A stretch of 47,810 nucleotides of DNA from Candidatus Undivivens industriae (lineage in GTDB: Bacteria > Omnitrophota > Gorgyraeia > Gygaellales > Profunditerraquicolaceae): positions 1 to 47,810 of the forward strand of contig JAAYZR010000029.1 of NCBI GenBank assembly GCA_012514745.1, read 5' to 3'. Numbering within the stretch: the stretch's first letter is position 1; each line of letters starts with the position of its first letter. A program made the translations under genes and the position numbers. Of this stretch, positions 465-41,005 are shown piece by piece. The notes beneath the pieces were generated by a model. That model made no database searches and was not told the origin of the DNA. It worked only from the letters and a program-made list of their open reading frames with translations.

Positions 465-526
465 GAGAAATAGCGATATACGCGGCCCAACCGGATATTG
501 CTTCTAAACGCGGAACTTCTTAGATA

Positions 527-1741
527 ATGGCGAGCTTTATATATAAGGCCAGAAATGTCCAGGGGGAATCTATTCATGGGATTATCGATGCCGCGGATGA
601 AAACAAAGCGGCTTCAGCCATCGAACATCTAGGCCTTATCCCGATTCAAATATCACATAATACCGGTTCGTATTCCGGCAGCTTTATGCAATTCCGAATC
701 AAACGGATATCCCGCCAGGAATTGCTTATTTTTACCAGACAGTTAAGCACTCTTATAGCCACCGGCGCTCCTTTGATAACGAGCATACAGAATGTCGCCG
801 ACCAGGCCCAAAACCCGAGGTTCAAACAGATACTTGGCAGTATTGTTTCTTCCCTGGAAAGCGGGGTAAGTTTTTCCGAATCACTGGCGCAGTATCCCGA
901 TATTTTCGGCGATTTATACGTGAGCCTTATCAAGGTCGGAGAGGCGGGCGGCCTGCTGGATAAAGTCCTGGCCAGACTGGCTGAGTTGAGCGTTCAGGAA
1001 ATAGACCTGCGCAGCAGGATAACATCGGCATTGGTTTACCCGGCGGTATTGGCTTCGGTGGCTTTCATCATCGTTAATTTCGTGCTGGTGGCGGTACTCC
1101 CGAAATTCACCGCTATTTTCGAGGCATCCTCTGCCAAACTGCCTTTGCCGACCCGGGCGCTTCTGGGCTTGAGTTATCTGGCGCGGAACTACTGGTGGCT
1201 GATGGCGCTGGCGGCGGTTTTCATCCTTAACGCCCTGCGTAATTATTACCGAACGCCCGACGGACGTAGATATTTCGATTCTTTGTTCCTGCGCCTGCCG
1301 CTGTTTGGTCCGTTGACTTTGAAAGTGATGGTCAGCCGGTTGGCCAGGTCCATCGCCGCCCTCACAAAGTCGGGCGTCCCGGTGCTGGAAGCGCTCACCG
1401 TGGTGGAAACTACCGTATCTAATGTGGTCCTGCAGAATATGATAAAGGACACGCGCGCAGCCATCTCCTCGGGGCAGAGTCTCACCGAACCTTTCAAGGC
1501 TTCGGGATTGTTCCCGCCGATGGTCATACAGTTGATCAATACCGGAGAGCGCACCGGCAGGCTGGACAAGATGTTCGACCAGATAGCGGATTTCTATGAA
1601 CCCGAGATAGAATTCACTATCCGTAACCTCACCAGTCTTCTGGAACCTATAATGCTTCTGGTGATGGGAACGGTGGTCGTCTTTATCGCTTTATCCGTAT
1701 TGCTGCCGATATTCAACCTGATAAGCGTTATAAAAAAATAG
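527..1741 (+). CDS. pilC: Type IV pilus/T2SS inner-membrane platform protein (PilC/GspF family)
   Basis: N-terminal FIYKARN..G; two T2SSF domains (FTRQLSTLI..G.PL, GEAGGLLD, ALVYP; KSGVP, FPPMVIQLINTGERTGRL, LLEP). Confidence 0.93.
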   Translation: MASFIYKARNVQGESIHGIIDAADENKAASAIEHLGLIPIQISHNTGSYSGSFMQFRIKRISRQELLIFTRQLSTLIATGAPLITSIQNVADQAQNPRFKQILGSIVSSLESGVSFSESLAQYPDIFGDLYVSLIKVGEAGGLLDKVLARLAELSVQEIDLRSRITSALVYPAVLASVAFIIVNFVLVAVLPKFTAIFEASSAKLPLPTRALLGLSYLARNYWWLMALAAVFILNALRNYYRTPDGRRYFDSLFLRLPLFGPLTLKVMVSRLARSIAALTKSGVPVLEALTVVETTVSNVVLQNMIKDTRAAISSGQSLTEPFKASGLFPPMVIQLINTGERTGRLDKMFDQIADFYEPEIEFTIRNLTSLLEPIMLLVMGTVVVFIALSVLLPIFNLISVIKK

Positions 1742-1775
1742 AGCGGCGTAAAGCCGGAACATACAACTTGAAGAT

Positions 1776-2282
1776 ATGAGGAGCGGATATATGAGAAAAA
1801 CTGTTGAGACGCGCCCTTGCGCAGAAGCGAAAATGACGGCATCCCGCGCGTTCACCCTGCTTGAACTTTTGATAGTGATTTCCATAATCGCGATACTTGC
1901 CAGCACGGTGATCCCCAATTTCATCGGTTTCGATACGGAAGCCAAACTTTCCGCAACCATAACCAACCTGAATACTTTGCGGACGCGCATAACGATGTAC
2001 CGCGCTAAAGAGGGGGAATACCCGGTTTCGTTAAACGACCTGCTTACCAAGACTTACGAAGATATGGGCGTCCAACAGCCGTATCTCGACAAAATTCCCG
2101 CGGAGATGATCTCCTCGAAAAGCGGTAATAATTCGGTCGTGGATATGAAAAGTGACGAGGACCTTTCCGGAGAGGGCGGCTGGGCCTATTATAGCGATAA
2201 AGCTAAAGTAATGGTCAACGTTACGGAACCGCTGGACGGCAAATGGGGTAAAAGCAAAGGGCAGGTGCCGGCGGAATGGTGA
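1776..2282 (+). CDS. Prepilin/pseudopilin, GspG-like
   Basis: Class III signal SRA|FTLLELLIVISIIAIL with Glu at +5; YP.SL.DL and YLDKIP motifs resemble GspG. The true start may be a later Met. Confidence 0.85.
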   Translation: MRSGYMRKTVETRPCAEAKMTASRAFTLLELLIVISIIAILASTVIPNFIGFDTEAKLSATITNLNTLRTRITMYRAKEGEYPVSLNDLLTKTYEDMGVQQPYLDKIPAEMISSKSGNNSVVDMKSDEDLSGEGGWAYYSDKAKVMVNVTEPLDGKWGKSKGQVPAEW

Positions 2283-2686
2283 AGCTACCCGGGGATGCGG
2301 GCAACCGCGGCGCCGTTTTGATGCTGGTGCTTGTGGTGATCTTTACCATATCCATAATGGGCGCCGTGCTGGTGGTTCTTTTTTTTAACGTCTTGACGTT
2401 GAGCGGCATCGAACTGGACAGGACAAGGGCGCTGTATTTGTCCGAGGCCGGCGTTTCTATGGCCGTGTCTGTGCTTAAGTCGCGGGCCGGCGAGGTGAGG
2501 ACCTCCGGCGCGCAGTCTAAGGAGGCCGCGGACGAATCTTCGCGCGGGGAAAAGATAATACCCGTAACCGAACTGGGAGGGGGATATTTCGAAGTTTACA
2601 ACGATTACGCTCAATCTACGATAATATCGATAGGCGTAAGCAACGGGGTAAAAAGAGTGATCCAGGTAAAATACAGCGCGTTCTAA
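2276..2686 (+). CDS. Minor pilin, PilX/GspK-like
   Basis: NRG|AVLMLVLVVIF hydrophobic segment lacking Glu+5; ALYLSEAGV motif typical of the PilX N-terminus. Confidence 0.75.
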   Translation: MVKLPGDAGNRGAVLMLVLVVIFTISIMGAVLVVLFFNVLTLSGIELDRTRALYLSEAGVSMAVSVLKSRAGEVRTSGAQSKEAADESSRGEKIIPVTELGGGYFEVYNDYAQSTIISIGVSNGVKRVIQVKYSAF

Positions 2687-2688
2687 AG

Positions 2689-3087
2689 ATGAAGATGAAA
2701 AAAGGATTCACTTTCGTCGAGATACTTATAACGCTCGCCATCACAGCGGTTTTTTTCATTCCCATGATGCAACTTTTCTCCGGCGCCGTTTATTCGGTGG
2801 CGATCTCGGAAGAAAAGGTTACGGCGGTAAACCTGGCGCGCTGGGAAATGGAACGGGTCAAGAACCTCAATATAACCAAGACCGGGTTAAAAAAGACCGG
2901 CGACCTGTGGATTCCGGAATTATCGGAGCCGCCGTTTGAGATAAACAATAATAAATGGAGGGTCCTGCGCAGAATAAAACCGGAGAGTGATCCTTTGGAA
3001 GTAAGCGTCGAGGTCTATAAGAGCGAAGACTTGAAGACCCCGTTGGCCTCGGTGGTCACTTTGATCGAGGATAATATATGGATATGA
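2689..3087 (+). CDS. Minor pilin, PilV/GspI-like
   Basis: KKG|FTFVEILI prepilin motif; AVNLA..EME helix. Confidence 0.8.
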   Translation: MKMKKGFTFVEILITLAITAVFFIPMMQLFSGAVYSVAISEEKVTAVNLARWEMERVKNLNITKTGLKKTGDLWIPELSEPPFEINNNKWRVLRRIKPESDPLEVSVEVYKSEDLKTPLASVVTLIEDNIWI

Positions 3088-4328
3088 ACATTCCGGCCGG
3101 GGCGAAGGAGCCGATGTCTTTTTCGGTTGAACGGCAGTCTTCACGTGGGTTCACTCTGCTGGAGCTTATTGTCGCGTTGTCCGTATCCGTGATGATCGCC
3201 TCGGCGTTGTATTTCAGCTTGAAGACGGCGTTGGAAAGTTGGGCTGTTTCGCAGGATCAGCTTATCCTGCAGCAGGTTTCATCCAGAATAATGGAAGAAC
3301 TTGTGGAAGGTCCGCTTGGAGGCAACGGTCTTAGGGATGTGCTGGAAGTGGTGGATTGTTCTCCTGTCATGGCGGTGACGGTTATGCCGTGGACGGACGA
3401 CACGCACGACGTCTCGAGCGGCATCAGTGTTTATACCTTGAATAAACACATTAAGCCGGGAACTAACGCCCCTATAGCGGAAGCGCTTCTGCCGGAATCG
3501 AACGAATACAAAGTGGTCCCGGTTACTCTGATAGAGAAAGGGAAATCCGAGGATTATCCGCAGGCCGGCCTGGATATTTCCCTTCCTGCCGCCAGCAGGC
3601 TTAGGTTTACTTATTATCCTGATTATAAGAATGATGTGGATGTCCTGACAACTTTCCGTTACGATCCGGAAGAGCAGGCGGTATTCGTGGAGGATAAGGA
3701 CGGGACAAGAGAGTTATACGCGAATCCTTTTGGAGTGAAGATAACGGAGTTCCGGATGCGTTTTTTCGACAGCGGCAACAATGAGTTGGAGGCCGGCGGA
3801 GATGATGTGTCGGCCGTTACCGGGATAGAGGTGGCTTTCAGGGCAAGAAGCGAGAACGGGACTGAAAGGGAGACAATCACTTTTGTCTCTTTACGCAATG
3901 CGCCGATGCATTCCGGCATCGTCCCTGTGAAAGAAGGCATGCGTTTCGCTATCCCCGATTCAAAAGAGATCAGGGCGTTATCTTTGTGTAATCTTTCTGG
4001 CATAGATAACGGTGACTCTATCATACTGGAAGCGAGATCGGAACACAGCAGAACGTGGCGGCTGAAAGTGCAATTTTCGAAACTATCAAGCGCCGGAAAG
4101 CCTATAATCGAAAGCTATACGGTGGAATATCCTTCCGGTAATAAGGTGTTTTCCGAACGCCCGCGCATACCGGCTGAATTCGGGCTTAACCTGTTGAATC
4201 TCGGACCGAACGGGCGCTATGATTACGGTTTTAACGATATAGACGGGGAAATCCTTCTGACCGGTAAGGTTACCCTGGAGGTAGATAAGATGGATATTGG
4301 GGGAGCGGCGATTTTTGTCCGCCCGTGA
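3078..4328 (+). CDS. Large minor pilin, PilW/GspJ-like
   Basis: SRG|FTLLELIV prepilin motif followed by a large globular domain. Confidence 0.8.
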   Translation: MDMNIPAGAKEPMSFSVERQSSRGFTLLELIVALSVSVMIASALYFSLKTALESWAVSQDQLILQQVSSRIMEELVEGPLGGNGLRDVLEVVDCSPVMAVTVMPWTDDTHDVSSGISVYTLNKHIKPGTNAPIAEALLPESNEYKVVPVTLIEKGKSEDYPQAGLDISLPAASRLRFTYYPDYKNDVDVLTTFRYDPEEQAVFVEDKDGTRELYANPFGVKITEFRMRFFDSGNNELEAGGDDVSAVTGIEVAFRARSENGTERETITFVSLRNAPMHSGIVPVKEGMRFAIPDSKEIRALSLCNLSGIDNGDSIILEARSEHSRTWRLKVQFSKLSSAGKPIIESYTVEYPSGNKVFSERPRIPAEFGLNLLNLGPNGRYDYGFNDIDGEILLTGKVTLEVDKMDIGGAAIFVRP

Positions 4329-4331
4329 GTT

Positions 4332-4387
4332 TTAATCCCCTCACTCAAACCGCAAAAATCTCCCGGTTTTCAAGCCCGGGGAGGTTT
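4332..4387. repeat. Short hairpin element resembling an IS200/IS605-family end; homologous to 47577..47740
   Basis: ttaatcccctc...aaatctcccggttttcaagcccggggaggttt; the same flanks recur at 47577-47616 and 47725-47740. Confidence 0.5.
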
Positions 4388-4390
4388 ATT

Positions 4391-4858
4391 ATGAAAAAGT
4401 TCATCGCCGCATTATCGCTATGCCGCAGGCGCGCCGCGGCGCTTGTTTTCCCGGTTGTTTTATTATTATCCGCGGCCGGCGCGTATGCAGAAGAGAAGCA
4501 ATGGTCCGGCAAATATGACGGTGTTACCTGGGAGAATGATCTTAACTGGTCTCCGCCTTCCGCGCCGTCGGCATCAGACGACGCGCGAGTAGATACCGAC
4601 GGGGCGGATGCGGCGGTAAGAGAGTCTTTCAATCTTAAGTCGCTCACCGTGGGGGGGCATACCGCGGCAATGGTGACGGTTTGGAATTCAGCCGACGGAA
4701 CGCTCCGGCCGGAGAATAGCTCCGTCCCGGCGCTTTATATAAGGAAAGGCGGGAGTGCGGTGTTACGGGGGGCAAGAGTGATTACCTTGACCGGAAGTTT
4801 TAAAAGTTCGGAAGAAACGCTTCCCGCGGAACCCGGGTTTACGTTTGAGGCGAAATAA
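4391..4858 (+). CDS. Small secreted protein of unknown function
   Basis: GGAGG RBS before ATG 4391 (in frame with ORF 4325). Sec signal ends AYA|EE. The W.G....W....NW.....P...DD motif resembles N-terminal caps of surface beta-helix proteins. Confidence 0.7.
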   Translation: MKKFIAALSLCRRRAAALVFPVVLLLSAAGAYAEEKQWSGKYDGVTWENDLNWSPPSAPSASDDARVDTDGADAAVRESFNLKSLTVGGHTAAMVTVWNSADGTLRPENSSVPALYIRKGGSAVLRGARVITLTGSFKSSEETLPAEPGFTFEAK

Positions 4859-4922
4859 GGGCTTATGGATCGCCGGCAAATCCCGAAGTTGAAGATATAT
4901 TAAAGAGAGGACAGCGGAACCC

Positions 4923-7900
4923 ATGAATTGTGAAAAACGGAAGTATATGACAATAAGAGCGTGTGGTTATATTTCCGTCATTTTAATCTTTTTTCTGTCC
5001 GCTTACAGCGTCTATGCCGGACAGCTTAAATTCGAAGGTGTGCCGGTGGATATCACTACCGCCGACAACGAAGACCTCGTCATAGCTCCCGGTTCTGGAG
5101 GGAAGACTCGGATAGGCATAGCCTCGGTAAACGACAATTACGCGGTCTCGCAGAATGATCTGTTCGTCAGCGGTATCCTGGAAACCGGGGGAGCGGGATA
5201 TTTCGATACCACGCTTACGGTAACCGGGCCGTTAACCGCAAACGGCAACGTAATCCTGGGAGACGGTTCATCGGACAAGATCAGCGTGACCGGCCGGCTG
5301 GCATCGGATCTGCTGCCGAATGTGGATTCTTCTTATAATATCGGCTCGTCCATTTTCGCCTTCTCCGGGGTTTACGCCGGCAGAATATCTAGTTCAGGCT
5401 CGGCATTGATTTTATCGCCGGCGTCCGGTTACCCTTTGACTGGTAATGTCTTCAGCAATGCCGCTTCCGGAGACGAAACCGCCTATGACCTGGCTTTGAC
5501 CGTAGATAAATCAGGTTCCGGGAATTATTGCGGTGTGAAATTGGACGTTACGGAAACTCTGGCTCCCGGCAGCGCGAATAAGCTGTTGGATCTTCAGGTC
5601 TCCGGGAACAGCCGTATGCGGGTTTACAGCGGAATGAGTTCGGCCGATTACGGTCTTTTATCTCTTGGAACAGGTTATTGGGACGGGAGCTCTCCCGGAC
5701 ATTTTGCCGGTTCTGCCGACGGAACTATGCTGGCGGTTAACGCTCCGGCCGGTTTTGCCGGGAACTTCATAGATTTGCAGGCGGGAGGCGCCTCCAGGTT
5801 CTACGTTGACTACCTGGGAAACATAGTGTCTTCCGGTTCGCAGATTTATTCCGGCGATATGGTGGTTGGAGGGGATTTAGCCGTCAACGGCGGAAATTTA
5901 ACGACCACCGCCCCCGTCTTTAATTTATTGAATTCCGGCGCCTCCACAGTGAATTTTGCCCAGGGAGCAACGAATCTTAGTATGGGCTCTTCCAGCGGGA
6001 CCACGCTCGTGAACAACAGTTTAACGGCGGAGAAGGGGTTCACTCTTTCTTCCGGCGCGTTGAATCTCAGCGCCAGCTCCGGCGCTTTATCTTTATCCGG
6101 CTTGTCTCCTTCTTACATTTCTACAGGAGAGAACCCTTTTGTCATAACTTCCGGCGGCGAGTCTTCTTGGTCCGTGACAAACGGGAATCTGGCGTTATCC
6201 ACCCTTACCTCCGGTAATCTGGTTTTGACCTCCGCCGGGTCTCTAAACCTTGCCGCCGGAGCTCCCTCTGTTTGGACGTTTCCCGCTTCCACCTCCGCCC
6301 TGAATATCGCCTCCGGGCTATTGAACATCGACACAATAAATTCCAGGATTGGCGTCGGGACTGCGAGCCCGGCGCAGGCGTTCGATGTGGCCGGAACAGG
6401 CAGATTCTCCGCCGGGCTGATCACGCCCAAGCTTTACCCGGCCGCCGATTCCGCCACCGCCGTGCAGATCAATAAAGCAGACGGCACGGCGAATGTGGTG
6501 AATATTGATACTATCAACGGAAGAGTAGGCATCGGGACGACGGCGCCTGCGGCTCCCTTAGATATTATCGGGGCATATACGGATGAATTTGGACAAATTA
6601 GTTTTAGACATTCCGCAGTGGAAACTACGGCTGGATGGATTGGGGCGGGCACTCAAAGTTTGGTAATAGGCGTAAAAAATTCAATATCGAGCGATGGTAT
6701 CCGATTTGAAACGGGAACGAGTACCGGCGCAGAGGCTATGAGAATAACAAGTGCCGGTAACGTCGGTATCGGAACTACCAGCCCCGCCTACACTTTGGAC
6801 GTCAGCGGCGACATCCGGGCTACCGGGACGATCTACGGCGCAAGCGGCACGCAGGTGCCGGTGGGGATCGGCACGGAGAATTACCTCTCCAAGTGGAGCG
6901 CGAGCGGCACTCTGGGGGATTCGGTGGTGTATGACGATGGGACAAAGGTGGGGATCGGGACGACGGAACCTGAAGCGAGTCTTCATACTAATGGAGCAAT
7001 GCTTGTGACTGGTTCTTCTGTCCCTACATCTGCGGCGGGTGTTCGCATGCAGTATTCTGGCGGCCAGGGTGATATTGTTGCTTATGATTGGGGCAGTTCT
7101 TCGTATAAACCATTGGCACTTCGCGGCGCTCCAGTAACAATTACCGGCAACGTCGGCATCGGCACGACGAGCCCGGGGTCTCGGTTGGTGGTGCAAGGCA
7201 CAACAACCGACAGCACAGCTTCTGGTTTGAATGTAATAGATAATAGCGGAGCAAGCATTTTGTTTGTTCGTAATGACGGGAAAGTTGGGATTGGCACGGA
7301 AACGCCAAGCCTTTCTCTTACTATTGATAAATCTTCTAATCCTGCCATTGCCGTTAGTGTATCGGGATCTATTCGCGGGACATTGGCTGCGGCTACAGCA
7401 TCGGAAGCATATTCAAATTTTGCGACTGCGGGAGATGTCATTATACGAAGTAGCAATGAAGACCTAATCTTAACCGCTAAAAACAGTTCCGGGGCCATTC
7501 GATTTGGCGCAGGGAATCCCGATACGGAGAAAGTAACCATATTAAATTCCGGCAACGTCGGTATCGGAACTACCAGCCCCGCCTATACTTTAGACGTCAG
7601 CGGCGATATCCGGGCTACCGGAACGATCTACGGCGCAAGCGGAACGCAGGTGCCGGTGGGAATCGGCACGGAGAACTACCTTTCCAAGTGGAGCGCGAGC
7701 GGCACTCTGGGAGATTCGGTGGTGTATGACGACGGGACAAAGGTGGGGATCGGGACGACGGCACCGAGTTTTCCATTGTCCTTTGGCACAGCACTGGGTA
7801 ATAAGATTGCGCTATATGATTCCGGTTCCGGGAATGGTTATGGATTTGGTATCCAGGCAAGCTTATTACAAGTATTTTCTACAGCATCGGATACTGATAT

Positions 7901-10900
7901 AACTTTTGGTTACGGCAATAGCAGTTCGATGACAAGAAATGTAACCTTCAAAGGAAATGGTACCGTCGGGATCGGGACGACGGTACCCGGGACGAAATTG
8001 CATGTGTATGACGATAATACTGCGGTGTTGAAAATTGAGGGTGGTACCACAAGTACACCGGCAAGAAGAGCAATTTTGGATTTAAAGGGGAATCAAGCGC
8101 GGGCCACCGGTATTCTGTTTGAAAATGCTTATAATCCTTGGTTTTTCGGAACTCCATATTTGGGCGGCGATACTTTGCAAATCGGCAAACATGCTACACA
8201 ACCCGAATATCCTGCCAACGCGTTTGTGACTATAAGTAGTACCGGTAATGTCGGTATCGGGACGACCAGCCCGGCTTACAAGTTAGATGTTAGGGCTGTA
8301 ACGGAGCCGGTTGTTGCAGCGCTTAGCACTACGGCTAATGATCCCAGCAGTGGCCGGATTATTTTTGGTGTTGCTACTGGAGCTGCGATGAATGAAGGTG
8401 GTGTTTTACGCTATGACGGTAGCGCGAATCAAATTTTATTAGGAAGCAACATCAGCGATGGGATAATTAAATATCATCGCGACGCGTCCACGGATACCTT
8501 AATGATATCAAGTACCGGTAACGTCGGTATCGGAACTACCAGCCCCGCCTACACTTTAGACGTTAGCGGTGACATTCGGGCTACCGGGACGATTTACGGC
8601 GCAAGCGGCACGCAGGTGCCGGTGGGGACCGGCACGGAGAATTACCTCTCCAAGTGGAGCGCGAGCGGCACGCTGGGGGATTCGGTGGTGTATGACGACG
8701 GGACGAACGTGGGTATCGGGACGGCCAGCCCAAGTACTCTTTTGGAAATCGCTCAAGGCGATATCGTTGATATGTCTAAAGGATTGAGTATTACTAAAAC
8801 CGGGCAAAACTGGCGTCTCCATATTGATACCAATAATGCTTTAAATATCAGGGATGTAACCGGTACTACAAATAAAATTACTATAGGAAATACAGTTAAC
8901 GGTAACGTGTTATTCAATACCGGCAATGTCGGGATTGGGACGACGTCGCCGGCGGCCAAACTGGATGTATATGGAGCAATTAAACTTGGCGGAGGAACTT
9001 ATGGCGGTATTACCTACAGCGATACACCGATAGCTAATAATACCCAGTTTTTTTCTGGATATGGCAGAGCATTGTTATTTAATGCTGGTGATGTGAACGA
9101 TCCAGATATTACAATTTTAAGCTCCGGCAACGTCGGCATCGGCACGACGAGCCCGACAAAAAGATTGGAAGTGGTTGATAATAGTAGTAATGGGACGGTA
9201 AATTTAGTAAATACATTGGCTTCCGGTTATGCTTCTTTTGATTTTTGGAATAATAGTGGCGTAAAAGTAGGTACGTTCGCTTTTTCAAATCCTTCAGCCT
9301 CTGTTTACCCAAATTCTCTTTGGTTTGGTACAAGAACCAATAATCCAATGTATTTATTCACTAATGATTATTCAAATATAAGGATGGCGATAACAGAGAA
9401 TGGCAACGTCGGCATCGGAACTACGGCGCCAGGTGAAAAATTGCATATTTATGGAGCGACGGGTGTTGTTCGAAGCAAGATTCAAGCTGGCGCGGCAGAT
9501 GGATATGCGACGTTTCAAGCTGCTACTGACGCAGGTGATCTACGGCTTGGTGCTGGTGGGTCTACCGCAACTTCAATAGGTGCTGCAGGACTTGGTTATT
9601 TAGGTACTTTCGTAAATAAAGGATTGCAACTGGTGACGAATGGCAACGAACGTATGCGGATTGATAATTTGGGCAACGTCGGTATCGGAACTACCAGCCC
9701 CGCCTACACTTTAGACGTCAGCGGCGATATCCGGGCTACCGGGACGATTTATGGCGCAAGCGGAACACAGGTGCCTGTGGGGACCGGCACGGAGAATTAC
9801 CTCTCCAAGTGGAGCGCGAGCGGCACGCTGGGGGATTCGGTGGTGTATGACGACGGCACGAATGTCGGCATCGGGACGACCGCGCCGGGGGCGGCGTTGC
9901 ATGTTGCCATTGCTTCGGCAGTTGATTGGATTCGTCTTGAGAGAACTGGGACAAGGACCTGGGGTTTTAATTCATCCAATGGGCATTTAAATTTTTACGA
10001 TGAAACCGCAAGTACTCTTCCTTTTGTAGTCGAAGGAGGTGCCCCAAGCTATAGTCTATATGTTAAAAATAGCGGCAACATCGGCATCGGAACGGCGGAA
10101 CCTTCTGGTAAGTTACATGTTTCGTATCCTGGATTTAATCCGCTTATCTTGGAAAGAAATGACGATAGTGCGTTTGCGCAAGGGTTGGAATTTAGAAAAG
10201 GGAGAAAGGGGGTAGGAGTTCAAGCGGGTGATCAGTTGTTTAGAATGATGGCTTTTGGTGAATTAAACGATGGGACCTATGCTTCCGCTTCGAATCATCA
10301 GGACTTTATGACGGCGGAAGCAACTGATAGTTTTACTTCGGTGGCGCAGGGGCGACAAAGTTCGTTTTATGTTGTTCCTACTGGGAGCATTACACAAACT
10401 CTGGCATTACGATTATTGAATAATGGCAACGTTTATATGCCGGGCAACGTCGGCATTGGGACGACGACGCCAGGAGATAGATTAGAATTGGCTACAGGAG
10501 TAAATCCAGGCTTGCTGATAACCGGCAGTAATACAACGGCGGCAGAGTCCGGCTCCATTTCATTCGCTTCCAATGCTGATAATACTGATACTAGAATTAG
10601 ATTGGTTAATGACGAAGCCGGAAATATCTTAAGATTTGATGTGCGTAATACTAAAGCGAGCGCGTGGACTCCCGCTATGTCGATAATCCGTTATACAGTA
10701 GGGCTTGGCAACGTCGGCATCGGAACAACGAGCCCGGCGTATAATCTGGACGTCAGCGGAGACATTCGGGCTACCGGGACGATCTACGGCGCAAGCGGCA
10801 CGCAGGTGCCAGTGGGGACCGGCACGGAGAATTACCTCTCCAAGTGGAGCGCGAGCGGTACGCTGGGGGATTCGGTGGTGTATGACGATGGGACGAAGGT

Positions 10901-13900
10901 GGGGATCGGGACGACGACGCCAGAAGAAAAATTGCATATTGGCACTGGAAGCATATTAATCGATAATAGCCAATTTTTTAAGCAGAAAGATTCGTCCGGG
11001 ACAGCGCGCCAAGTATTTGTTGCCGATTCTTCAAACAATCTTTATCTTGGTAGTAGCTCTGGATGGACTGGCGGTTTAGTATTGCAATATCCTAATACTG
11101 CAGTTCTAAAAATTTTAAGCGGTGCTTCTGAAAAGGTGCGTATCGACAGTTCCGGTAACGTCGGCATCGGGACGACCGCGCCGGGGGCGAAGTTAAACAT
11201 TGTATCCACAGGAGCAATTCACTCTGGAAGTCCTTCTCTGCTGATTGAGGATACAACATATCGGCCAACTTTAACGCTGAACGCACAAACTGACAAAGCA
11301 CAAGAAATTGTGTTTAAGAATCAGGGGACAACGAAGTGGTGGTTTTCAAATCGGGATGAGGCTGCAGAGGGGAGTCAATTAAGATTCTATTCAGGCGACG
11401 GTATTGCTCGTTTGGCGATTAGTCAAAATGGCAACGTCGGCATCGGGACTACGAGTCCGGCTACGCCTCTGACAATAAACGCGAGTAGTGCTGATCCGCA
11501 ATTTAGAATTACTAGAAGCGCAAGTCCAACGCAAGGAATGACTATAACTGCAGGGGCGGGTACAACAATATTTGCAAGTGTTGAGGGTACTGATTCAGTA
11601 TATGGCCGCTACCAATTTGATAGTACAAAGGGTGCTTCTACGGCAACTCGTATGTATATCGATAGTAACGGCAATGTCGGCATCGGGACGACGGCGCCAG
11701 ATAGACGTTTAACAGTTAAGCAGTCTGAATCAAATGTACCTGCTATTTTAGTAACGCGTTTTGATGAAAATGATATTTCGTATAAAGTTGGTATCGGTGA
11801 GCATTGGGATGCAACCAATGGGGAAGCAATGTATTTATATTCCGCCGCTGGGGTCGCGGGCGGCCTCGATTCTTCCAATGTTAAAATGGCGATTTTCAGT
11901 AACGGCAACGTGGGCATCGGAACAACGAGCCCGGCGTATAATCTGGATGTAAGCGGAGACATCCGGGCTACCGGGACGATTTACGGCGCAAGCGGCACGC
12001 AGGTACCGGTGGGGACCGGCACGGAGAATTACCTCTCCAAGTGGAGCGCGAGCGGCACGCTGGGGGATTCGGTGGTGTATGACGACGGGACGAATGTGGG
12101 GATAGGAACGACGACGCCGCAGGGAACTCTTGATGTTAACGGTATTATTTACATAGGAGGTGCTGACTCAAATATTAGATATAGGTCTGCGGGGGGAACA
12201 TCTTTTGCATTTCACGATGGTACAAGTGCTGAAAGTGTTGTTGCTAGAGATATAAGATTGTCAAGATCATTTTCGACAACAGATGATAATGATCCAGGGG
12301 AAGGAGGTATATACGCTGACGGAATTTTGAAAATTGCAGGTGCGGGGAATAGCTATATTCTTGGCAACGTCGGTATCGGGACGACGACGCCGACGCAAAA
12401 GCTGGACCTTAGCGCCAACATTGCCAACGGTGGATTCTTGGGAACGCAAACGCTTGATACCGGGAGAAGTGAAGGCCTTTTGGTGGGAGTTTATAAAGAA
12501 ACCACCGCTGGTGCTTATACCTTTTCCGGTTTATGGCCGTATGGCGTAACGCCAAGCAACACCAATTATATTTTCGGCACCACCGGGGCAACATCTGATA
12601 CTTATTTTGGGGCGCCGACGGGAAAATCAATGTATTTTCAAGTTGCTGCCGATTCCAAGATGATAATTACCAGTGCAGGCAACGTCGGCATCGGGACGAC
12701 GACGCCGGGACAGGCTTTGGATGTAATTGGCAATGTTAGGATATATAATAGTTCCACGACAGGTAAAGGTTTCTTGGGTTATAACGGTAGCGATACTGCA
12801 CATCGTTTCTCGATGGTGAGATCGGATAGTCCAGAAACAGGTACTTTGTCGATTTCTGCAATGGGCGGTATTGGTCTCACGGGTAATAAGAGTGCTGGGT
12901 ATGAAGGTAGTAATTACCAAATGTATCTAAGTAGTGCGGGCAACGTCGGCATCGGAACAACGAGCCCGGGGACAAAATTGGACGTGTATGGTTCTTTGCC
13001 GAAGATAAGAATTAGTGATTCGAGAGACCAAGATTGGTCAACAAACAATGTTCTTGGTTCTTTGGAATTTTATACTGCCGATACGGTTACAAGCGACCCG
13101 AGAGTAGCGGCATCAATCTCGCAAATTACAGACTATTCTGGCAGCCATAATACGCCACGCGGCGCGTTGCAATTCAATGTATCTACAACGGGCGCAGCTT
13201 CTGAAGCAATGAGGATTTCTAGCGCTGGTAACGTGGGCATCGGGACAACGAGCCCGGCGTATAATCTTGACGTCAGCGGCGATATCCGGGCTACCGGGAC
13301 GATTTACGGCGCAAGCGGCACGCAGGTGCCTGTGGGGACCGGCACGGAGAATTACCTCTCCAAGTGGAGCGCGAGCGGCACGCTGGGGGATTCGGTGGTG
13401 TATGACGACGGGACGAACGTCGGCATCGGGACGACAGCGCCGGGGGCGAAATTGGAAGTGGCTCATGGAGTTGCAAATTTTAAAGTAGAGGATTTGGGTA
13501 CTTATTCAACAAAACTTACGAGTTCAGGAGGGCTAGGTCTAAATGCTAATGGTGGCGGTTCTCTAGTTTTTCTGATTGCTGACACAGAGAAGGCGAGAAT
13601 AGATACTGCGGGCAACGTGGGTATCGGGACGACGACGCCGGAATATGAATTGGATGTGAATGGCGTGATACGGGCGCAGACGGCGATTATTGCAGGTATG
13701 AATGTCGAAACTCTCTCGGCAAATAAAACTTTGACTCCGGGCAGCGACAAAATGTACCAATATCTTGATCCAAATGGAGTTTCTCGCAATATAACTTTGG
13801 CCACTGCGACTGCCGTTACAGGCGATCGTTTCATCTTGCGTAATAATGCGGCTTCTTATAATTCATCTTATTATTTGGCGATCTACCAAAGTACGACGCT

Positions 13901-16900
13901 ATTGGATTATGTTTATGTCGGTTCGATCAAAGAATATGTGTTTGATGGCGTTAATTGGATTTCCGGATCGAATGGCAGTGGAGGGTATGATAATAAGAGA
14001 TACAATATCGCACTGGGGTATAATGCCATCGCTTATGACAGTGGAACCGCGTTGGGTTATGACGCTCGAGGGTATACGAGTGGCGCGGCGGTCGGAAACA
14101 ATTCATACGGATATAATTATGGCGCGGCGTTGGGAAGCGGATCCAAGGGGATGCGCTATGGCGTAGCTATTGGTTACCAAGCCGGTAAGACCCAGACAAC
14201 ATTATTTGATCTTTATAATGTTTTGGTGGGGGCTTATGCCGGTTATCAATTAACCGGAAATTCTGGCGTTGGTTTAGGCAATATTATGGTTGGTTATCAG
14301 TCCGGTTATGACGCAACTTATTCGCCAACCACAGGCTCTAAAAACATTCTTATCGGTTTCCAGGCCGGGGCGCCGAGTAATACCACTTCTAATTTCTTGA
14401 ACATTGGCAACGCGATATTCGCTACCGGCATCAACAATTCCACTTTTCCAGCTATCAGTGAGGCTAACGTCGGGATCGGAATAACAACGCCGAATGCACC
14501 ATTGCATGTAACCGCCGCTAAAACTAATAATATTCTTGCCAGATTTGAAGATACTTCTGCCTTATCAACGGGAGAATTAACCGGGATAAGAATACAAGGC
14601 AAGAATTCAATTGGCGATAGCCAGTATCTTGATTGGTTTTTTGAGCCCAATACCGGCAAATATGGATTCGGTTATGGGACAGGATCAACACATTTGCCTA
14701 TTAGCGCCGGATTATCGTATGCAGATTTAACGGTAGATAATCAAGGCAACGTCGGCATCGGAACTACCAGTCCCGCCTACACTTTGGACGTCAGCGGCGA
14801 TATCCGGGCTACCGGGACGATCTACGGCGCAAGCGGAACACAGGTGCCGGTGGGCACCGGCACGGAGAATTACCTCTCCAAGTGGAGCGCGAGCGGCACG
14901 CTGGGGGATTCGGTGGTGTATGACGACGGGACGAACGTCGGCATCGGGACGACGGATATTACTCGTGGCAAGATAGAGATTAAACAAGGTGTCAATACTA
15001 TAAATGGTGGTATCGGTATTACTAATTCCGGGGTTGCAGGCTCATTGAGATTATGGGTTGATGCCTCAAACATTGCACGTATCAGTAGCGGGGGAACGGA
15101 AGCATCCAATTTGGTGCTTAACGGCGAAGGTATCGGTAACGTCGGTATCGGGACGACCAGTCCAAGCGAGAAATTAGATGTTAGTGGTGCTACTAATACA
15201 TATGTTCGTTCGGTTACTACCGGTGCGAGTGGTTCAGCGGTATTTAAGGCGCAAAATGATGGTACGGCAAGCATTAATATGAGGGCAGATGGGAGTGGCC
15301 TCAGCGCAAATTCTTTATTTGGGTTAAGTCGCGCTAATCTTTTAGAGCTTTTTAGTCAGAATGGTGGTTTAGTGGTGGGGACGCTTGATGCTAATGATTT
15401 GACGCTTGGCACAAATAATACGGCCAATGTAACAATAAAGAGTGCCGGTAACGTCGGTATCGGGACGACCAGTCCGAGTGAATTGTTGCAAGTAGGCGGA
15501 ACTGCCATGGGGTCGGCGAATAGGCACGCAATTTCTTTAGGTGCGGATGGTTGGGGTGTTCCTGGGGTAAGCGGTGTAAATAGCAACGGCGATAAACTCA
15601 TTTTATTTAGGAATGAAACAACGAGTATGGGTCTGGGTGTCGAGAGTAGTAATATGTGGTTCCAGGCAACGCAATCCGGCAGTGCGGGCGGATTTAAATG
15701 GTATCAAAATGGGATCGCGACAATGATATTGAATACCTCCGGCAACGTCGGCATCGGGACGACGACGCCGGCAACAAAACTGGATATATTAGGTGACCTT
15801 ACTCTGTCAACCGCAAAAACTGGTACGGCGTCGCGGCAAATAGGCATGCGCAATGGTAACAATATTAGTTTGATGCAGTTTGACTTTCCTGAAGCGACAA
15901 GTATCCAATCTGATATTAGATTTTTTCGCGAAACCAATAATTCAGTTGCGCCGCAATTGATTATTTTCAAGGCTGATGGCACTAATTCTCCGCAAACCAG
16001 CTTTTCGGCTCGTGGTACTTCTTACATTAACGCAATATCCGGCAACGTCGGTATCGGAACTACCAGCCCCGCCTACACTTTAGACGTCAGCGGCGATATC
16101 CGGGCTACCGGGACGATTTACGGCGCAAGCGGAACACAGGTGCCTGTGGGGACCGGCACGGAGAACTACCTCTCCAAGTGGAGCGCGAGCGGCACTCTGG
16201 GGGACTCGGTGGTGTATGACGACGGGACGAATGTGGGCATCGGGACGACGGCGCCGGCAACAAAGTTGGATATTGACGGAACATTGGGCGTCTCGGCCAA
16301 TTCTTCATACACAACTTCGTCGGGTGCTGGTTTTGTATTTAGGAATTCAACTTCCCCGGATTATGAAATGTATGGCGGCTACGATATGTCGATTGACGGC
16401 GCTTTTTTGCAAGGAGTTCGAGTGGCTTCCCTTATCAAACCTTTTTACATAAATCCGCGCGGAGCCGATGTTAGTCTTGGCGCTATCGGGACGGGAATGA
16501 TCGTCAAAAGTTCCGGCAGCGTCGGCATCGGGACGACGAGCCCCAGTTCTAAATTGCATGTTGGTGGGACTACGGGGAATTCATACATTTCGTTACAGGG
16601 CGGAACAACCAGCTCAGATTACGGGATCGACTGGTTATTTAGTTCAGCTTCGACGAGATACGGTAGCATTAATTTAGATTGGGATACAAGAGCGACAAAA
16701 GGATTACGAATTGCCTCCGGTTATCCTATCTCATTTTATACAGCAGTTACGGACGGTGGCGACAGTGATGCTGATGTAATAATAGATAGTTCCGGCAATG
16801 TCGGCATCGGGACGGCGACACCTGGAGACAAGTTGGAAGTATACAAAGATCAGGCAAGCACAACTCGTATTACTGTAAATAATCCAAGCGTTGCTGATGG

Positions 16901-19900
16901 GGCATTTAAACTTATTTCATTCAAGGAAGGCTCAAATGAGCAGAGTTATATAGGAGTGGCTTCTAGCGGCGATGTGATCGAGCCTCACAGAATGTTTATT
17001 TGGAATACCGAAAACGCGAGATTACAGTTTGGTACGAATGGCACAGAAAAGATGACGATTTTAGGTAGCGGCAACGTCGGTATCGGCACGACGAGCCCCG
17101 CCTACACTTTGGACGTCAGCGGCGATATCCGGGCCACCGGAACGATCTACGGCGCAAGCGGCACGCAGGTGCCTGTGGGGACCGGCACGGAGAATTACCT
17201 CTCCAAGTGGAGCGCGAGCGGTACGCTGGGGGATTCGGTGGTGTATGACGACGGGACGAACGTCGGTATTGGGACGACCAGTCCGAATGCCTTGCTTGAT
17301 ATCTTGAACACAACAATTTCCCACTTAAGATTGTCTTATGATTCATCTCATTATTCCACCATTGGTGTCGATAGCAACGGGTATACCTATTTTGGTGGCA
17401 CATCCGGGAGGTTTTATTTCAATGCTAGTAATAAAAACAATGTATTTTATGTATATGATTATACTGATGGCGCCAGTAGTTACGCTACTTATAACGGGAG
17501 CAGTTATACTCTAAGGAAGCAGGGAAATACCACAGTATCAATACCGAATAATGGCAACGCCTATTTTAATCAAGGGAACGTCGGCATCGGGACAACGACG
17601 CCGGCAAGAAAATTGCATATCTATTCAACAGAATTAGTTTCCGCAATTTTCGAAAGAGATGTTGCTGCTGATGTTGGGATTCAATTTAAAAATCCGGCTT
17701 TTAACTGGACTTTTGGGTTTGATGATAGCCAAGAGACATTTTCTATTGCTGAAGCCTCTGATTTAAATTCTGGTAGTCAACACTTTGTAATTAAATCAGG
17801 TGGCAACGTCGGTATCGGAACGACGACGCCAGGGACACAATTGGAAGTGATGAGCGCTTCCGGAGGCATTGTAAGACTTAAGAGAGACGATATTATAGTA
17901 TCAGGCGGCGAGTTGTTGGGAGAATTACAATTCTATTCCAACGACAATAATTTGGATGCCGAAGGCGTTAGGGCAAAAATATCGGCGTTCAACAAAGAAT
18001 CTGACAGCGATGGCATTAAAACAAACCTTGCCTTCTATACGGTCAATGGGGTTGCGGATAATCTTGCCGAGGCAATGAGAATTGACGAAAGCGGCAACGT
18101 CGGCATCGGCACAACGACGCCCGCCTATAAGCTGGATGTCAGCGGCGACATTCGGGCTACCGGGACGATCTACGGCGCAAGCGGAACGCAGGTACCGGTG
18201 GGCACCGGCACGGAGAATTACCTCTCCAAGTGGAGCGCGAGCGGCACGCTGGGGGATTCGGTGTTGTATGATGACGGGACGAATGTGGGCATCGGGACGA
18301 CGAGCCCCTCCTATAAATTGGATGTTAATACTACCAGCGCTCTTCACTTAGGCAATTTATATGTTAGAGGTACCGGGTATAATCCTGTTCTGGATTCTGG
18401 TGCCAGCGCTGGGTCATTAACATTTGGTAGTGGTGTTAATAATCCGGGTGGAAGAATTGTCTCTTATGGCGGGATGCACGCGACTTTACCGGGAATTATT
18501 ACATTTAGCACAGGTATTGGTGAAACTGTTCCAGAGGTAATGCGTATAGATAGCACCGGTAACGTCGGCATCGGGACGGCGGCGCCAAACGCAGTACTCG
18601 AAGTAAGTAAAGCTAATAGTGGGGCAGAGCAAGTAGCAGGTATTTTTACGAATGCGGCAATTGCTGATGCAACTGCGGTGAGTTTTAAAATGCAAAATAG
18701 TACCGATACTTCTACCAATTACGGAGCGGTGAAATTCAAAAGCTCCCGTAATGTTGGCGGTTCGGCGGATTTGCTTATTCAAGCCTCAGACAATACTGGC
18801 GTATTGCAGGACAGGTTTATTATCGATAAATCCGGCAACGTCGGTATCGGGACGACGGCGCCGGGGGCGAAATTAGAAATAACTCCCGGATCGACTGTCG
18901 GCGATGAGGCAATCAATGTAAAAGATGAGTTTATTATTAAAAAAGTAAGTACGTCTGGATATCGCATAATGGGGCGGGGTTTTAATACGATTTCCGCGGC
19001 TGATTCGTCCGGTTTTGGTTTGTTGACAAGTTCTAATACGGCGCAGTTTTTAAATGCTAAGGGTATATTTTTGGGCGCAAGTTATGCTAGCAGCGCGGCG
19101 AATGAGGGAGAAATTCGTACTGCTGCCGAGACTAATTTAATATTTTCTCCGGCGGGAAGTACCGCGATGACTATTCTTAGTGGGGGCAATGTGGGCATCG
19201 GGACGACGGCGCCGGGGGAGAAGCTCGAGGTGGCCGGGGCAATAAAATCCTTAACCTCGACTCAATACACCGGGTTTTATCTACATAACGGGTCCCATAT
19301 GGTTGCGGACTTGAAAGGATTCGACGACGATAACGATAACGGCAACCTTCAGCTTTATGATAATGGCGTTGTGGGGATAAAAATCCAGGGTGCCGGTGAA
19401 TCTTACTTTAATGGCGGCAACATCGGCATCGGCACAACGGCTCCGGGGGCGACATTAGACGTGGTAGCACGGGCTATAACGGGGCAGGAATCAGTTATGA
19501 AATGGTCTGTGGCTGATGCAGCGGATGCTTATATTGATATTAGAAATAATACTTCTACTGATGGGCAAGCGATGTTAGCTTTTAGGGGTGTTAATGCTAA
19601 TAATGTTGGACCAGCCTTAAGTTTTATTGGGGACGTTACTTCGTCTCGTGATTCTGGAACGTCCGGAGCGATTACATTTCAGGCCCGAAAAGGTTCTGGG
19701 GTGGTAGCTAATCGTCCCGCAATCGTTTTCGATAATTATACGGAAAGATTGATGACAATTTTGAGTTCCGGCAACGTGGGCATCGGGACGACGGCGCCGG
19801 GGGAGAAACTGGAAGTGAGCGGAGCTGTTCCAATGATAAAAATAATTGATCCTTCCTATCCTGACCGTAATATTAAAGTGGGAGTTGTCAATTCGGGCGG

Positions 19901-30492: not shown

Positions 30493-30724
30493 TCGTTATG
30501 AAACTCCGCGGGTTGATTCGCGATTATACTCGGGATTAGTTCCCGCAGTTTTGGAGCGTAATTCCGGACCGCGGATCCGGCGGTTTCTTTGAGGCGTGGA
30601 CGTTCCCGGGCGCACGGGTATAGATACCCGGCGATCGGCCGATAGCGCGCAGTCCGCAGACGGTGTTTTCTGCGCTCCTGTTTCCGATCGTTCCGTTCTA
30701 TTCTCCGAGAAAAAGGAGGGGTTA

Positions 30725-32137
30725 ATGCTGTCAGGGCGGAAAAAAAGAGATTTATCTCTATTGTCGCGCGGTTTGAAATACAGGCTTAAGATTTCATTTT
30801 ATCTGATCTTCCTTCTGCCGTTCCTTATCTCCGTTTATCTTCTTTCTAACTACGTCTTTCCCCGCGCCGGCCTTCCCGGAGAGTTGTTTGTGTCGTTGTC
30901 GATAAGCATGATCATCGCCATTATAGGCTTCTTTTTGATAAAAGAAGTGTTCGACCGCGTCCTCACGATCGCTCTGGAGGCCAGACTTATAGCCGCCGGC
31001 GATATCAGCCGCAAGGTGGAGATTGAGCGCAGCGACGAGGTCGGAGATCTCGGCGAAGCCCTTAACCAGTTGACACAGCGTATCCGCAGCAATATGGACG
31101 AGTTGAAAAGTTACGGGCGCAAAACCACCCAGATAAACATGGAGATACAAAAAAGGGTGCTGGCGCTTTCCAGCCTGCTGCAGATCAGTTCTCTGGTTTC
31201 GGAGGGGGCGGAACTTAAAGATATCCTGGATATGGCTGTGGATAAAGCCGGCTTGCTGGCGGAATCCGAGGCCGCTTACCTTTTTCTGAAAGACAAAGAG
31301 AGCGACTCTTTTCTGATTAAATTCGCAGTGGGGCATGGAGGGGATAATCTGCTGGGGATGAAAATAAATGCTTCCGATGCGGTCTTCGGTTCTCTGCTCA
31401 CGAGAGGCGATATCTTCGTGGCCGATGCCGACCATAAAAAAGCCGCCGATTCGTTCTCGCAGCGTTTCCGGTTCCGCAATACGCTCGCGGTCGCCGTGCC
31501 TTTGCGCAATGAGATCACTGCGGTGCTGGGGATCGTCAATTCGAAAGAGGATTTCACTTACGAGGACGATGATGCCGAACTGTTGGATATATTCGGACGC
31601 CAGATATCCATAGCTATCGAGAACGACTTTCTGCTGCACAAGGCGGAAAAGCTTGAGATAAGGGATGCGTTGACCGGGCTGTTCAACGAGAATTACATAA
31701 ACGGCAGGCTGGATGAAGAGATAAAGAGGGCGATATTATGCCAGCGCCCCTGTTCTTTCGTGGTGTTCGATATAGACGATTTTGCCAGGTTCAGGCGCGA
31801 GTTCGGGGCCATAAGCGCAGAGATCTCTCTGAAGAAAGTGGCGGGAGTCATACACGACGTTATCTCGGAGATAGACAGATCCGGGAGGACGGCGGACAAC
31901 GAGTTCTCCGTGATCATGCCGGAGAAGAATAAGCGCCAGTCAAAGGAGATCGCCGACGTTATCCGCGGGAAGGTCGAGGAGATGTTTTCAGCGGAACCGG
32001 AGCCGGGCAGGCGATTGACCATAAGCGCGGGCGTCAGCGAAAACCCGCTGGACGGCATCACGGCGCGGGAGTTGATAGAAAGGGCCCGCAGTTCGGTCAA
32101 CCTGGCAAAAGCGCAGGGAAAGAACAAAGTCGTTTGA
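30725..32137 (+). CDS. 2TM-HAMP-GAF-GGDEF protein with a degenerate active site
   Basis: AAGGAGG RBS before ATG 30725 (in frame with ORF 30596). Two TM helices, HAMP (DEVGDLGEALN), GAF, DALTGL and FDIDDF; GG(D/E)EF is replaced by ADNEF. Confidence 0.85.
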   Translation: MLSGRKKRDLSLLSRGLKYRLKISFYLIFLLPFLISVYLLSNYVFPRAGLPGELFVSLSISMIIAIIGFFLIKEVFDRVLTIALEARLIAAGDISRKVEIERSDEVGDLGEALNQLTQRIRSNMDELKSYGRKTTQINMEIQKRVLALSSLLQISSLVSEGAELKDILDMAVDKAGLLAESEAAYLFLKDKESDSFLIKFAVGHGGDNLLGMKINASDAVFGSLLTRGDIFVADADHKKAADSFSQRFRFRNTLAVAVPLRNEITAVLGIVNSKEDFTYEDDDAELLDIFGRQISIAIENDFLLHKAEKLEIRDALTGLFNENYINGRLDEEIKRAILCQRPCSFVVFDIDDFARFRREFGAISAEISLKKVAGVIHDVISEIDRSGRTADNEFSVIMPEKNKRQSKEIADVIRGKVEEMFSAEPEPGRRLTISAGVSENPLDGITARELIERARSSVNLAKAQGKNKVV

Positions 32138-32204
32138 AGAGGTTTAGCATTCCGTTACCGCCCGCAGGGTGAGCCGTAGGCAATCAGGGAGCAGGATCAA
32201 AGAT

Positions 32205-32651: not shown

Positions 32652-32655
32652 GACC

Positions 32656-34380: not shown

Positions 34381-34432
34381 CGGCCGCCGGCCAAGGAGCC
34401 CGCGCGGGTGACCGGCGGGATAAACAGAATAA

Positions 34433-36160: not shown

Positions 36161-36161
36161 G

Positions 36162-37238: not shown

Positions 37239-37245
37239 GGCGGTT

Positions 37246-38910: not shown

Positions 38911-40503
<1,593 letters not shown>

Positions 40504-40649
40504 ACTTTCCCCCAGGGGATTGTTTAGACCTCAACCGGTGTTCGGACCGGTTGTTGTAGTGCTTGGCTATTCTTTTAAATTCATACGAGTCGTAATGACG
40601 CGAATGCGGAGAAAGACGGTCCTGTTTATGGACCTTAGATTCTTGAATC

Positions 40650-40723
40650 GGGCCCATAGCTCAGTTGGTTAGAGCACAGCCCTGATAAGACTGGGGTCAG
40701 TGGTTCGAATCCACTTGGGCCCA
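40650..40723 (+). tRNA. tRNA-Ile(GAT)
   Basis: GGGCCCA/TGGGCCC acceptor stem, CTGATAA anticodon loop, GGTTCGAATCC T-arm; CCA not encoded. Confidence 0.96.
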
Positions 40724-40919: not shown

Positions 40920-41005
40920 CTTCTTAAAAAGAAGTAACGCGACGACACGATAGATTCAAGCCGCAAGGGCGCTACATCTTATAAGCGCGCGCGGATTGTT
41001 CTTTG

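Follow-up and report, generated by a model that had tools for sequence, protein, structure and literature searches.

A gene of 15.85 kb in Candidatus Undivivens industriae (Omnitrophota) encodes a giant protein of 5282 residues that resembles phage tail fibres, and genes sharing its N-terminal module are found, with two exceptions among 35 loci, directly behind the same type IV pilus operon. The gene lies at positions 4923-20771 (+ strand) of contig JAAYZR010000029.1 (assembly GCA_012514745.1), whose 47,810 nt are called the window here; it is the entire contig C28 of a genome of 1.55 Mb that is 94.7% complete. Bacteria of the Omnitrophota are uncultured and very small and are thought to live on other cells; the conserved position of the fibre gene suggests a pilus machine that exports the fibre, or carries it, for gripping other cells. 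The MAT fibres of Bdellovibrio and the Omnitrophota giant genes adjacent to type II secretion system (T2SS) genes have already been published; what appears to be new here is a fibre of the tail-fibre type that is kept in a pilus cluster.

Conservation of the linkage between fibre and pilus genes

The conserved N-terminal module of the giant (N-module) was used to scan one genome per prokaryote species, which yielded 35 loci; open reading frames (ORFs) were called at these loci and then searched with the window proteins. The first-pass annotation had staked its reading of the operon on the linkage being kept in relatives, and this is what was found: in 33 of the 35 loci the same pilus operon lies directly upstream of the N-module fibre and on the same strand. 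Fifteen loci have the order of the window, PilC-G-X-I-W-sec-fibre, where the letters stand for the GspG-, PilX-, GspI- and PilW-like pilins and sec for a small secreted protein; 14 have PilC-G-X-I-PilB-fibre, three PilC-PilB-G-fibre and one PilC-G-X-fibre. One exception (L106) is a 1.5-kb contig without flanking sequence, and the other is considered below. At L114 and L120 the fibre is followed downstream by a DUF6701 gene and then by a pilin of the 416-residue type and the small secreted protein; the set persists through rearrangement. The complete fibre ORFs at these loci encode 343-2704 residues, the window giant with 5282 being the longest. The related contigs are almost all from Candidatus Omnitrophota, in line with the affiliation proposed earlier from the DNA itself.

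In a sample of 401 genomes of the phylum, strong matches to the N-module were found in 19 and to the small secreted protein of 155 residues in 21, with both present in 18, often on different contigs. Type IV filament machinery is a heavy investment of the C. Undivivens industriae genome, which has five secretins, nine T2SSE-family ATPases, one prepilin peptidase and about 17 prepilin ORFs in six clusters. From this density of prepilin ORFs over 1.55 Mb we estimate the chance of direct adjacency at about 1% per locus; the linkage counts include kin, one locus being that of a same-genus relative, and are not independent. In the papers searched, exclusive of supplements, no tail-fibre-type protein is described as a fixed component of a pilus cluster, which is not proof of absence.

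Architecture of the giant fibre

The giant is a single uninterrupted ORF. Read by eye, its N-terminus is basic and then hydrophobic, ends in VYA|GQ and has no prepilin motif, and this signal-peptide layout is common to 35 of 35 homologues. The signal peptide (residues 1-32) and the conserved N-module together occupy 4923-5630 (+ strand), the mature end starting GQLKFEGVPVDITT. An alignment of 36 sequences has 17 invariant columns in the N-module, which is a candidate docking or export determinant. Conservation of the module greatly exceeds that of the body and so implies a conserved partner; the module also stays constant while fibre lengths vary, as in phage fibres, where the constant end is the one attached to the particle. 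Its predicted monomer fold (pLDDT 63.7, pTM 0.36) falls short of what a fold search needs, as would be expected of an intertwined trimer.

The body contains 40 GNVGIGT-type motifs that are 68-170 residues apart except for one gap of 378 residues, and matches the tail-fibre families phrog_9942 (4.7e-43) and phrog_18345 (4.4e-29). The best matches among solved structures are Bdellovibrio MAT fibres [8ond (5e-08), 8oml (1.9e-05) and 8ol4 (2.5e-04), also 8ojn and 8on4], and the N-terminal third searched against PDB sequences gives 8ol4 (3.4e-05) and 8ond (1.1e-04). These matches uphold the earlier description of the giant as phage-fibre-like, and its N-terminus upholds that of a protein with a Sec signal and without a prepilin motif. 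From homology, the giant would be a homotrimer. Scaled from Bd2133, in which 370 residues span 150 Å (PMC10769870), the mature fibre would be roughly 0.2 µm long. The sole GNVGIGT-free stretch of 378 residues falls within residues 2890-3280 (13590-14762); it is rich in short repeats of Tyr, Gly and Ala, and no match to it was found in Pfam or among solved structures.

The last ~110 residues (20436-20768, + strand) are probably a self-cleaving intramolecular chaperone of the phi29 gp12 (Peptidase_G2) type. The match to PF11962 (3.5e-05, 23.8 bits) is just under the cut-off of 25, and further matches are to the pre-neck appendage family phrog_4775 (9e-05), to the tailspike chaperone 28nb (5.8e-05) and to 3gqh (0.021). 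A structural model of this domain is of low confidence (pLDDT 57); Foldseek returned no match at E ≤ 0.001, and its top two rows are both phi29 gp12 (first row 3gqh_A, E 2.4e-2, TM 0.37). The S74 chaperone/protease domain PF13884 was not matched in the giant and is present in the short fibre of L058 (7.4e-11). Neither half of the giant matched the beta-propeller of PilY1 (PF05567) at E ≤ 0.1; a whole-genome search for PF05567 was likewise negative, but control genomes were equally silent, so that this second search is uninformative. The giant has no match to SecA or DEAD domains and, by eye, no lipobox and no hydrophobic segment beyond the N-terminal one.

The tail-fibre PHROG matches and the gp12-like C-terminus are also what one would expect of a prophage, or the remnant of a phage-tail-like particle, that had come to lie beside the pilus genes by chance. 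Pfam scans of the window ORFs brought up no other phage-type gene, however, the protein carries a Sec signal peptide, and the placement behind the pilus operon is kept in 33 of 35 loci; on these grounds a prophage origin was rejected as extremely improbable.

Invariant nodes and variable blocks

Eleven long direct DNA repeats run through the giant gene and encode near-invariant nodes of 70 residues between 6756 and 18302 (+ strand), starting at 6756, 7551, 8517, 9672, 10707, 11904, 13227, 14745, 16041, 17070 and 18093. The node copies have a mean amino-acid identity of 97.3%, and over their 55 pairs the divergence is 0.40 at synonymous sites (dS) and 0.014 at non-synonymous sites (dN), a dN/dS of about 0.03; because the synonymous sites have diverged, the node peptide is under purifying selection rather than the product of recent gene conversion. 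The blocks between the nodes are variable, with lengths of 195-436 residues and identities to one another of 24-59%. Since the gene contains exact DNA repeats as long as 98 nt, the order and number of its internal blocks rest on the assembly.

A close relative, P0003 (4430 residues), has ten copies of the same node. Its N-terminal region and first two blocks are collinear with those of the giant (88-99.6% identity), and its later blocks are reordered, G4 of one protein corresponding to H6 of the other (92%), G8 to H5 (96%) and G9 to H4 (82%); for blocks G6 and G7 this comparison gives no close counterpart. Another long fibre, P0113 (3358 residues), has seven copies of a different near-identical node. 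The pattern of invariant nodes and variable blocks thus recurs with node sequences that are unrelated. We infer that the nodes are junctions that keep the trimer in register and mark module boundaries, and a design of nodes and blocks may explain how very long trimeric fibres hold register and diversify.

The pilus operon of the window

Seven co-oriented, densely packed ORFs on the + strand make up 527-20771, as the first-pass annotation had claimed, with intergenic distances that range from overlaps up to 64 nt. The first (527-1741) encodes an inner-membrane platform of the PilC/GspF family (PF00482 T2SSF, 2e-59, in two stretches), which scores 397.8 bits against TIGR02120 GspF (cut-off 424) and about 340 against PilC models (cut-off 700). 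It is followed by a GspG-like major pilin or pseudopilin (1776-2282; N_methyl 4.1e-06, T2SSG 3e-04) with the prepilin motif RA|FTLLEL and no cysteine, which scores 46.1 bits against TIGR01710 GspG (cut-off 88.85). The 136-residue product of 2276-2686 is a PilX/PilK/GspK-like minor pilin with a hydrophobic, pilin-like N-terminus that lacks Glu+5 (alignment A6); it has no match of its own in Pfam, PHROGs or NCBIfam, its homologue in L019 matches PilX_N weakly (E 0.0075), and 30 homologues lie beside fibre loci. A GspI/PilV-like minor pilin (2689-3087; motif KKG|FTFVEI, N_methyl 6e-06, weak matches to gspI at 1.4e-3 and pilV at 2.3e-3) precedes a large minor pilin of 416 residues in the position of PilW/GspJ (3078-4328; motif RG|FTLLEL, N_methyl 2.1e-06).

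The last gene before the giant (4391-4858) encodes the small secreted protein of 155 residues, its ATG at 4391 being preceded by the ribosome-binding site GGGGAGG. No family in Pfam, PHROGs or NCBIfam matches it, a word-index homologue search returned only its own 92% cluster, and an Atlas search returned only unnamed clusters. Sixteen aligned homologues have a variable signal peptide, a mature part with conserved Trp, Asn and Asp motifs and a conserved extreme C-terminus. The 416-residue pilin is the constant partner of this protein; its 16 homologues beside fibre loci (1e-77 to 2e-269) are each followed by the small secreted protein.

Contigs from four metatranscriptome libraries, 95-99% identical to the window, span 500-4856, and in one run contigs also span 5009-6346; no contig bridges 4857-5008 in these libraries, which may hold DNA carry-over. 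Neither a promoter-like nor a terminator-like site lies in the 64-nt gap at 4858-4923; the scans for such sites stayed at chance level. At 4332-4391 the contigs of three RNA libraries lack 58 nt between the stop of the 416-residue pilin and the start of the 155-residue protein and have four other letters instead; in this strain variant the two genes all but touch.

The remainder of the cluster and the class of the machine

A same-genus relative has a contiguous secretin of 856 residues immediately upstream of PilC. Residues 1-775 of this protein correspond to an ORF on the reverse strand of contig C27 that runs off the contig start (G000:C27:1-2423; Secretin, Secretin_N and STN domains), and residues 698-856 to positions 3-464 of the window (+ strand), which encode a C-terminal tail of Lys/Glu-rich repeats. 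Since the single secretin of the relative matches both ends, C27 joins C28 inside the Lys/Glu-rich repeat. The cluster secretin also has a tetratricopeptide repeat (TPR), and its long tail, in which the assembly break falls, is a tandem repeat rich in Lys, Glu and Ala. The joined cluster reads TPR protein, 782-residue DUF6701/Big_1 protein, ATPase, PilM, PilN, PilO and secretin, followed by the window genes.

The first-pass annotation spoke of a pilus or T2SS machine; that it is a type IV filament machine is borne out, and a finer assignment did not hold, since all equivalog models score below their cut-offs. The PilM_2, PilN and PilO domains are all above cut-off, and the ATPase passes the MshE-type c-di-GMP-binding motif NF053729 (59 bits, cut-off 38) while falling short of both GspE (569.3 vs 630.25) and PilB (540.4 vs 675.65). 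The secretin falls short of PilQ (251.7 vs 284.35), GspD (250.1 vs 351.35) and MshL (157 vs 250.2), and every score in the test for GspD, GspE, GspF and GspG is under its cut-off. Judged by these profiles the machine combines traits of type IVa pili, MSHA pili and T2SS and is not assignable to one class.

The mixed profile bears on a rival explanation, in which the fibre is a cargo of the T2SS kind: it would fold in the periplasm and be pushed through the secretin by a short pseudopilus, to be released or held at the surface in some other way, and the N-module would be a secretion signal. GspF and GspG are the models that fit the platform and the pilin best, and for the ATPase GspE (569) is slightly ahead of PilB (540). 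The pilin is free of cysteine, and the fibre resembles T2SS substrates in carrying a Sec signal; the synteny data apply equally, and T2SS-like loci lie upstream of other Omnitrophota giant genes according to the portions of West-Roberts et al. considered here (10.1101/2023.11.21.568195). Set against this are the Gsp equivalog scores, none of which reaches its cut-off, and PilM, PilN and PilO, the MshE-type motif and the MshQ-like protein, which point to a pilus. An adhesin must moreover stay bound to the cell, and no other anchor (lipobox or further hydrophobic segment) was seen. T2SS substrates are, to our knowledge, not known to share a linear N-terminal signal. Cargo of this kind appears rather unlikely.

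The DUF6701 match of the 782-residue protein (34.6, cut-off 27) is of interest for the role of the giant. DUF6701 is the MshQ family, and a 2026 study puts MshQ forward as the counterpart of PilY1 in MSHA pili, according to the sections of PMC12918778 considered here. A PilY1-like role may already be filled, because this MshQ-like protein is in the same cluster, and it is the likelier PilY1 equivalent. The earlier placing of the giant in the 'PilY1 slot' is thus right as to position, directly after the minor pilins and kept so in 15 loci, and needs correction as to simple substitution for PilY1; the giant may instead be an additional constant member of the cluster.

A model for fibre export and display

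The favoured reading is that the giant is a trimeric adhesin of the MAT/phage-tail-fibre type and a dedicated part of one type IV filament machine; taken as a whole, we give this an even chance. That fibre and machine are functionally coupled in some way is probable. Stable display on the filament tip is plausible, with the balance slightly against it. The cluster has its own secretin and ATPase as well as PilM, PilN and PilO. After Sec export, cleavage behind Ala32 would expose the invariant N-terminus. Three chains would fold from the C-terminal gp12-type chaperone domain, which would then cleave itself off; about 40 beta-helical modules of the MAT type would form, with the 11 invariant nodes of 70 residues keeping register. 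The N-module would dock on the filament machine, most likely on a tip complex of the minor pilins with the 155-residue protein, extension of the filament would take the fibre through the secretin and present it, and the variable blocks would bind the surfaces of host or prey cells. The data themselves give gene content, homology, conserved synteny, phyletic co-occurrence and the pattern of selection on the nodes, whereas the trimer, its self-cleavage, its docking, the route of export and the binding of targets are all to be taken as proposed steps of this model.

Several points weigh against it. Docking on the minor pilins is a proposal drawn from synteny and conservation; a complex prediction with the K-like pilin, the 416-residue pilin, the 155-residue protein and residues 33-152 of the N-module scored 0.07 against a mark of 0.32 and is neutral on binding. 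The MshQ-like protein is a candidate tip protein that the cluster already possesses, and a very small cell would have difficulty accommodating a stiff fibre of ~0.2 µm in its periplasm ahead of export. At L112, a complete chromosome, the module occurs without the operon, with only a weak pilin 4 kb upstream, and two genomes of the same order have a related operon (PilC-G-X-W-pilin-PilB, W 25-26% identical) without the fibre. With the C-terminal part of the fibre as query, 22 of 301 genomes matched, and pilin or type IV pilus genes flank seven of 20 loci (L055, L058, L060, L062, L063, L069 and L070); this query mixes fibre classes, and the remaining 13 loci either lack pilus genes or are cut by contig ends. 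A second class of short fibres, with the mature N-terminus ..ITxTTYYPSPxGxY, occurs in 231 of the 401 phylum genomes, as many as 13 times in a single one, and the three TTYYPxPxGxY copies of the C. Undivivens industriae genome itself are on contigs without a detected prepilin cluster. Finally, the N-module is patchy, being found in 22 of the 401 genomes and in one of 59 of its own family, and co-regulation or a co-transferred island can yield the same synteny pattern.

The last of these points belong to another explanation, in which there is linkage and nothing further: the fibre would be exported by a different route and lie beside the pilus genes through a shared role in attachment, through co-regulation or as part of an island that is transferred together. 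The patchy distribution fits a mobile island, the GC content of the giant gene is 0.49 against 0.53 for the genome, the short fibres of the second class are mostly unlinked to pilins, and the parts of the MAT study considered here do not report Bdellovibrio MAT genes as linked to pili (PMC10769870). This explanation has to contend with the cluster and the window, in which no alternative export system is encoded, with a linkage that survives three different gene orders, and with an N-module so much more conserved than the body that it points to a conserved partner. We regard it as unlikely.

That all MAT-like fibres of the phylum are linked to pili can be rejected, the TTYYPxPxGxY class being mostly not beside pilins; the link is specific to the N-module class. 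The TTYYPxPxGxY family, which is very common, consists of signal-peptide proteins, some of them short MAT-like fibres; examples are G000:C2:2478-5286 and G000:C30:37760-38809.

Comparison with known adhesins

The nearest likeness is to the MAT fibres of Bdellovibrio bacteriovorus, which recognise prey according to the sections of the MAT study considered here (PMC10769870). Both have a signal peptide and, behind it, a conserved N-terminal domain, which in MAT fibres is beta-rich and about 130 residues long (these domains being compared by layout only), beta-helical modules with the motif ...R(I/M)D.SGNVGIGT..P (sequence matches to solved structures 5e-08 to 1.3e-2) and mosaic variable parts; the spacing of the GNVGIGT motif is that of the MAT beta-helical modules, many MAT members have a self-cleaving C-terminal chaperone, and the host bacterium of the giant is likewise thought to live on other cells. 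The giant differs in its length (5282 against ~1000 residues), in its eleven internal invariant nodes, in its gp12/G2-like rather than S74 chaperone and in its constant membership of a type IV filament cluster, a setting that the sections considered here do not report for MAT genes. The invariant N-terminal domain of MAT fibres presumably binds a surface element that was left unnamed, type IV pili being mentioned (Caulton et al., 2024; PMC10769870, in the sections considered), and the corresponding sections of a September 2026 review do not report its partner (PMC13689555). A defined short N-terminal module with a small set of candidate partner proteins is a candidate for anchoring of the MAT type.

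With PilY1/PilC, and with MshQ in its initiation complex with PilI-J-K (GspI-J-K), the giant shares that it is a large Sec-exported non-pilin encoded directly after minor pilins, and the role proposed for those proteins, in the sections of PMC12918778 considered, is likewise that of an adhesin on the filament tip. The giant lacks the beta-propeller of PilY1, and its conserved end is N-terminal rather than C-terminal. It would be unable to supply the beta-strand that PilY1 and MshQ have at their C-terminal ends, and which in PilY1 complements the PilK-family minor pilin, because its own C-terminus is probably a removable chaperone domain. The gene order here is K-like, I-like, J-like, and a separate MshQ-like protein is encoded in the same cluster.

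The N-terminal segments of CofJ and TcpF of type IVb pili dock on a trimer of minor pilins at the tip. By description, these too are proteins with a Sec signal whose mature N-terminus determines pilus-dependent export at a trimeric tip, but they are small, soluble and released, and their type IVb pilus has a single minor pilin. A homotrimeric adhesin derived from tail fibres that is carried or launched by a type IV filament through an invariant N-module, and not through a C-terminal strand of the PilY1/MshQ type, can be proposed only tentatively; if true, it would be a new class of pilus-borne adhesin, in which the nodes would allow whole binding blocks to be swapped, and it would also name the long-sought surface partner of the MAT N-terminal domain in predatory bacteria.

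Phage tail fibres and tailspikes (phi29 gp12, 28nb) have in common with the giant the PHROG families, a constant N-terminus, a variable distal part and a chaperone-like C-terminal domain; the giant differs in its cellular context, its signal peptide, the lack of virion genes and its much greater length. The giant genes described in Omnitrophota (West-Roberts et al., 2023; 10.64898/2026.06.07.730766) belong to the same phylum, encode very long surface proteins and, in the parts of these accounts considered here, adjoin type II/IV secretion or pilus genes, have class III signal peptides nearby and are given a proposed role in prey adhesion. They are at least 25 kb long with many transmembrane regions and SecA-DEAD domains, whereas the gene described here has 15.85 kb, a single N-terminal signal and the tail-fibre type. 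Tail-fibre terms are absent from the parts of the main texts on these genes that were considered, and the supplements may list the family. The present locus, in which a type IV filament machine comes with a fibre gene of its own, is a concrete candidate for the means by which Omnitrophota seize their hosts.

Other features of the window

Downstream of the giant, 20969-21847 (+ strand) encodes a coiled-coil protein of 292 residues with only coiled-coil-type matches, all below cut-off. Weak homologues adjoin short fibres at L054 (2.7e-13) and L058 (3.3e-05), and one further copy is present in the same genome (C4); the similarity to the fibre-adjacent homologues may be compositional only, and membership of this protein in the system is uncertain.

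The other neighbours of the cluster in the window are aroA, mreBCD, pbp2, rodA, signalling genes and an rRNA operon that has a LAGLIDADG endonuclease gene in its 23S intron. At 32169-38454 lies another group of filament genes, encoding a stand-alone MshEN-domain protein, a pair of paralogous PilB/GspE ATPases that bear MshEN domains, an HD-domain response regulator and a further PilC; a GGDEF protein (30596-32137) is encoded immediately upstream of it. The rRNA operon (38911-46076) is complete, with 16S, two tRNAs, 23S and 5S. Its 23S gene is split by a group I intron (43725-43930, 59.2 bits), which adjoins an ORF for a LAGLIDADG endonuclease (43182-43712, 7.9e-18).

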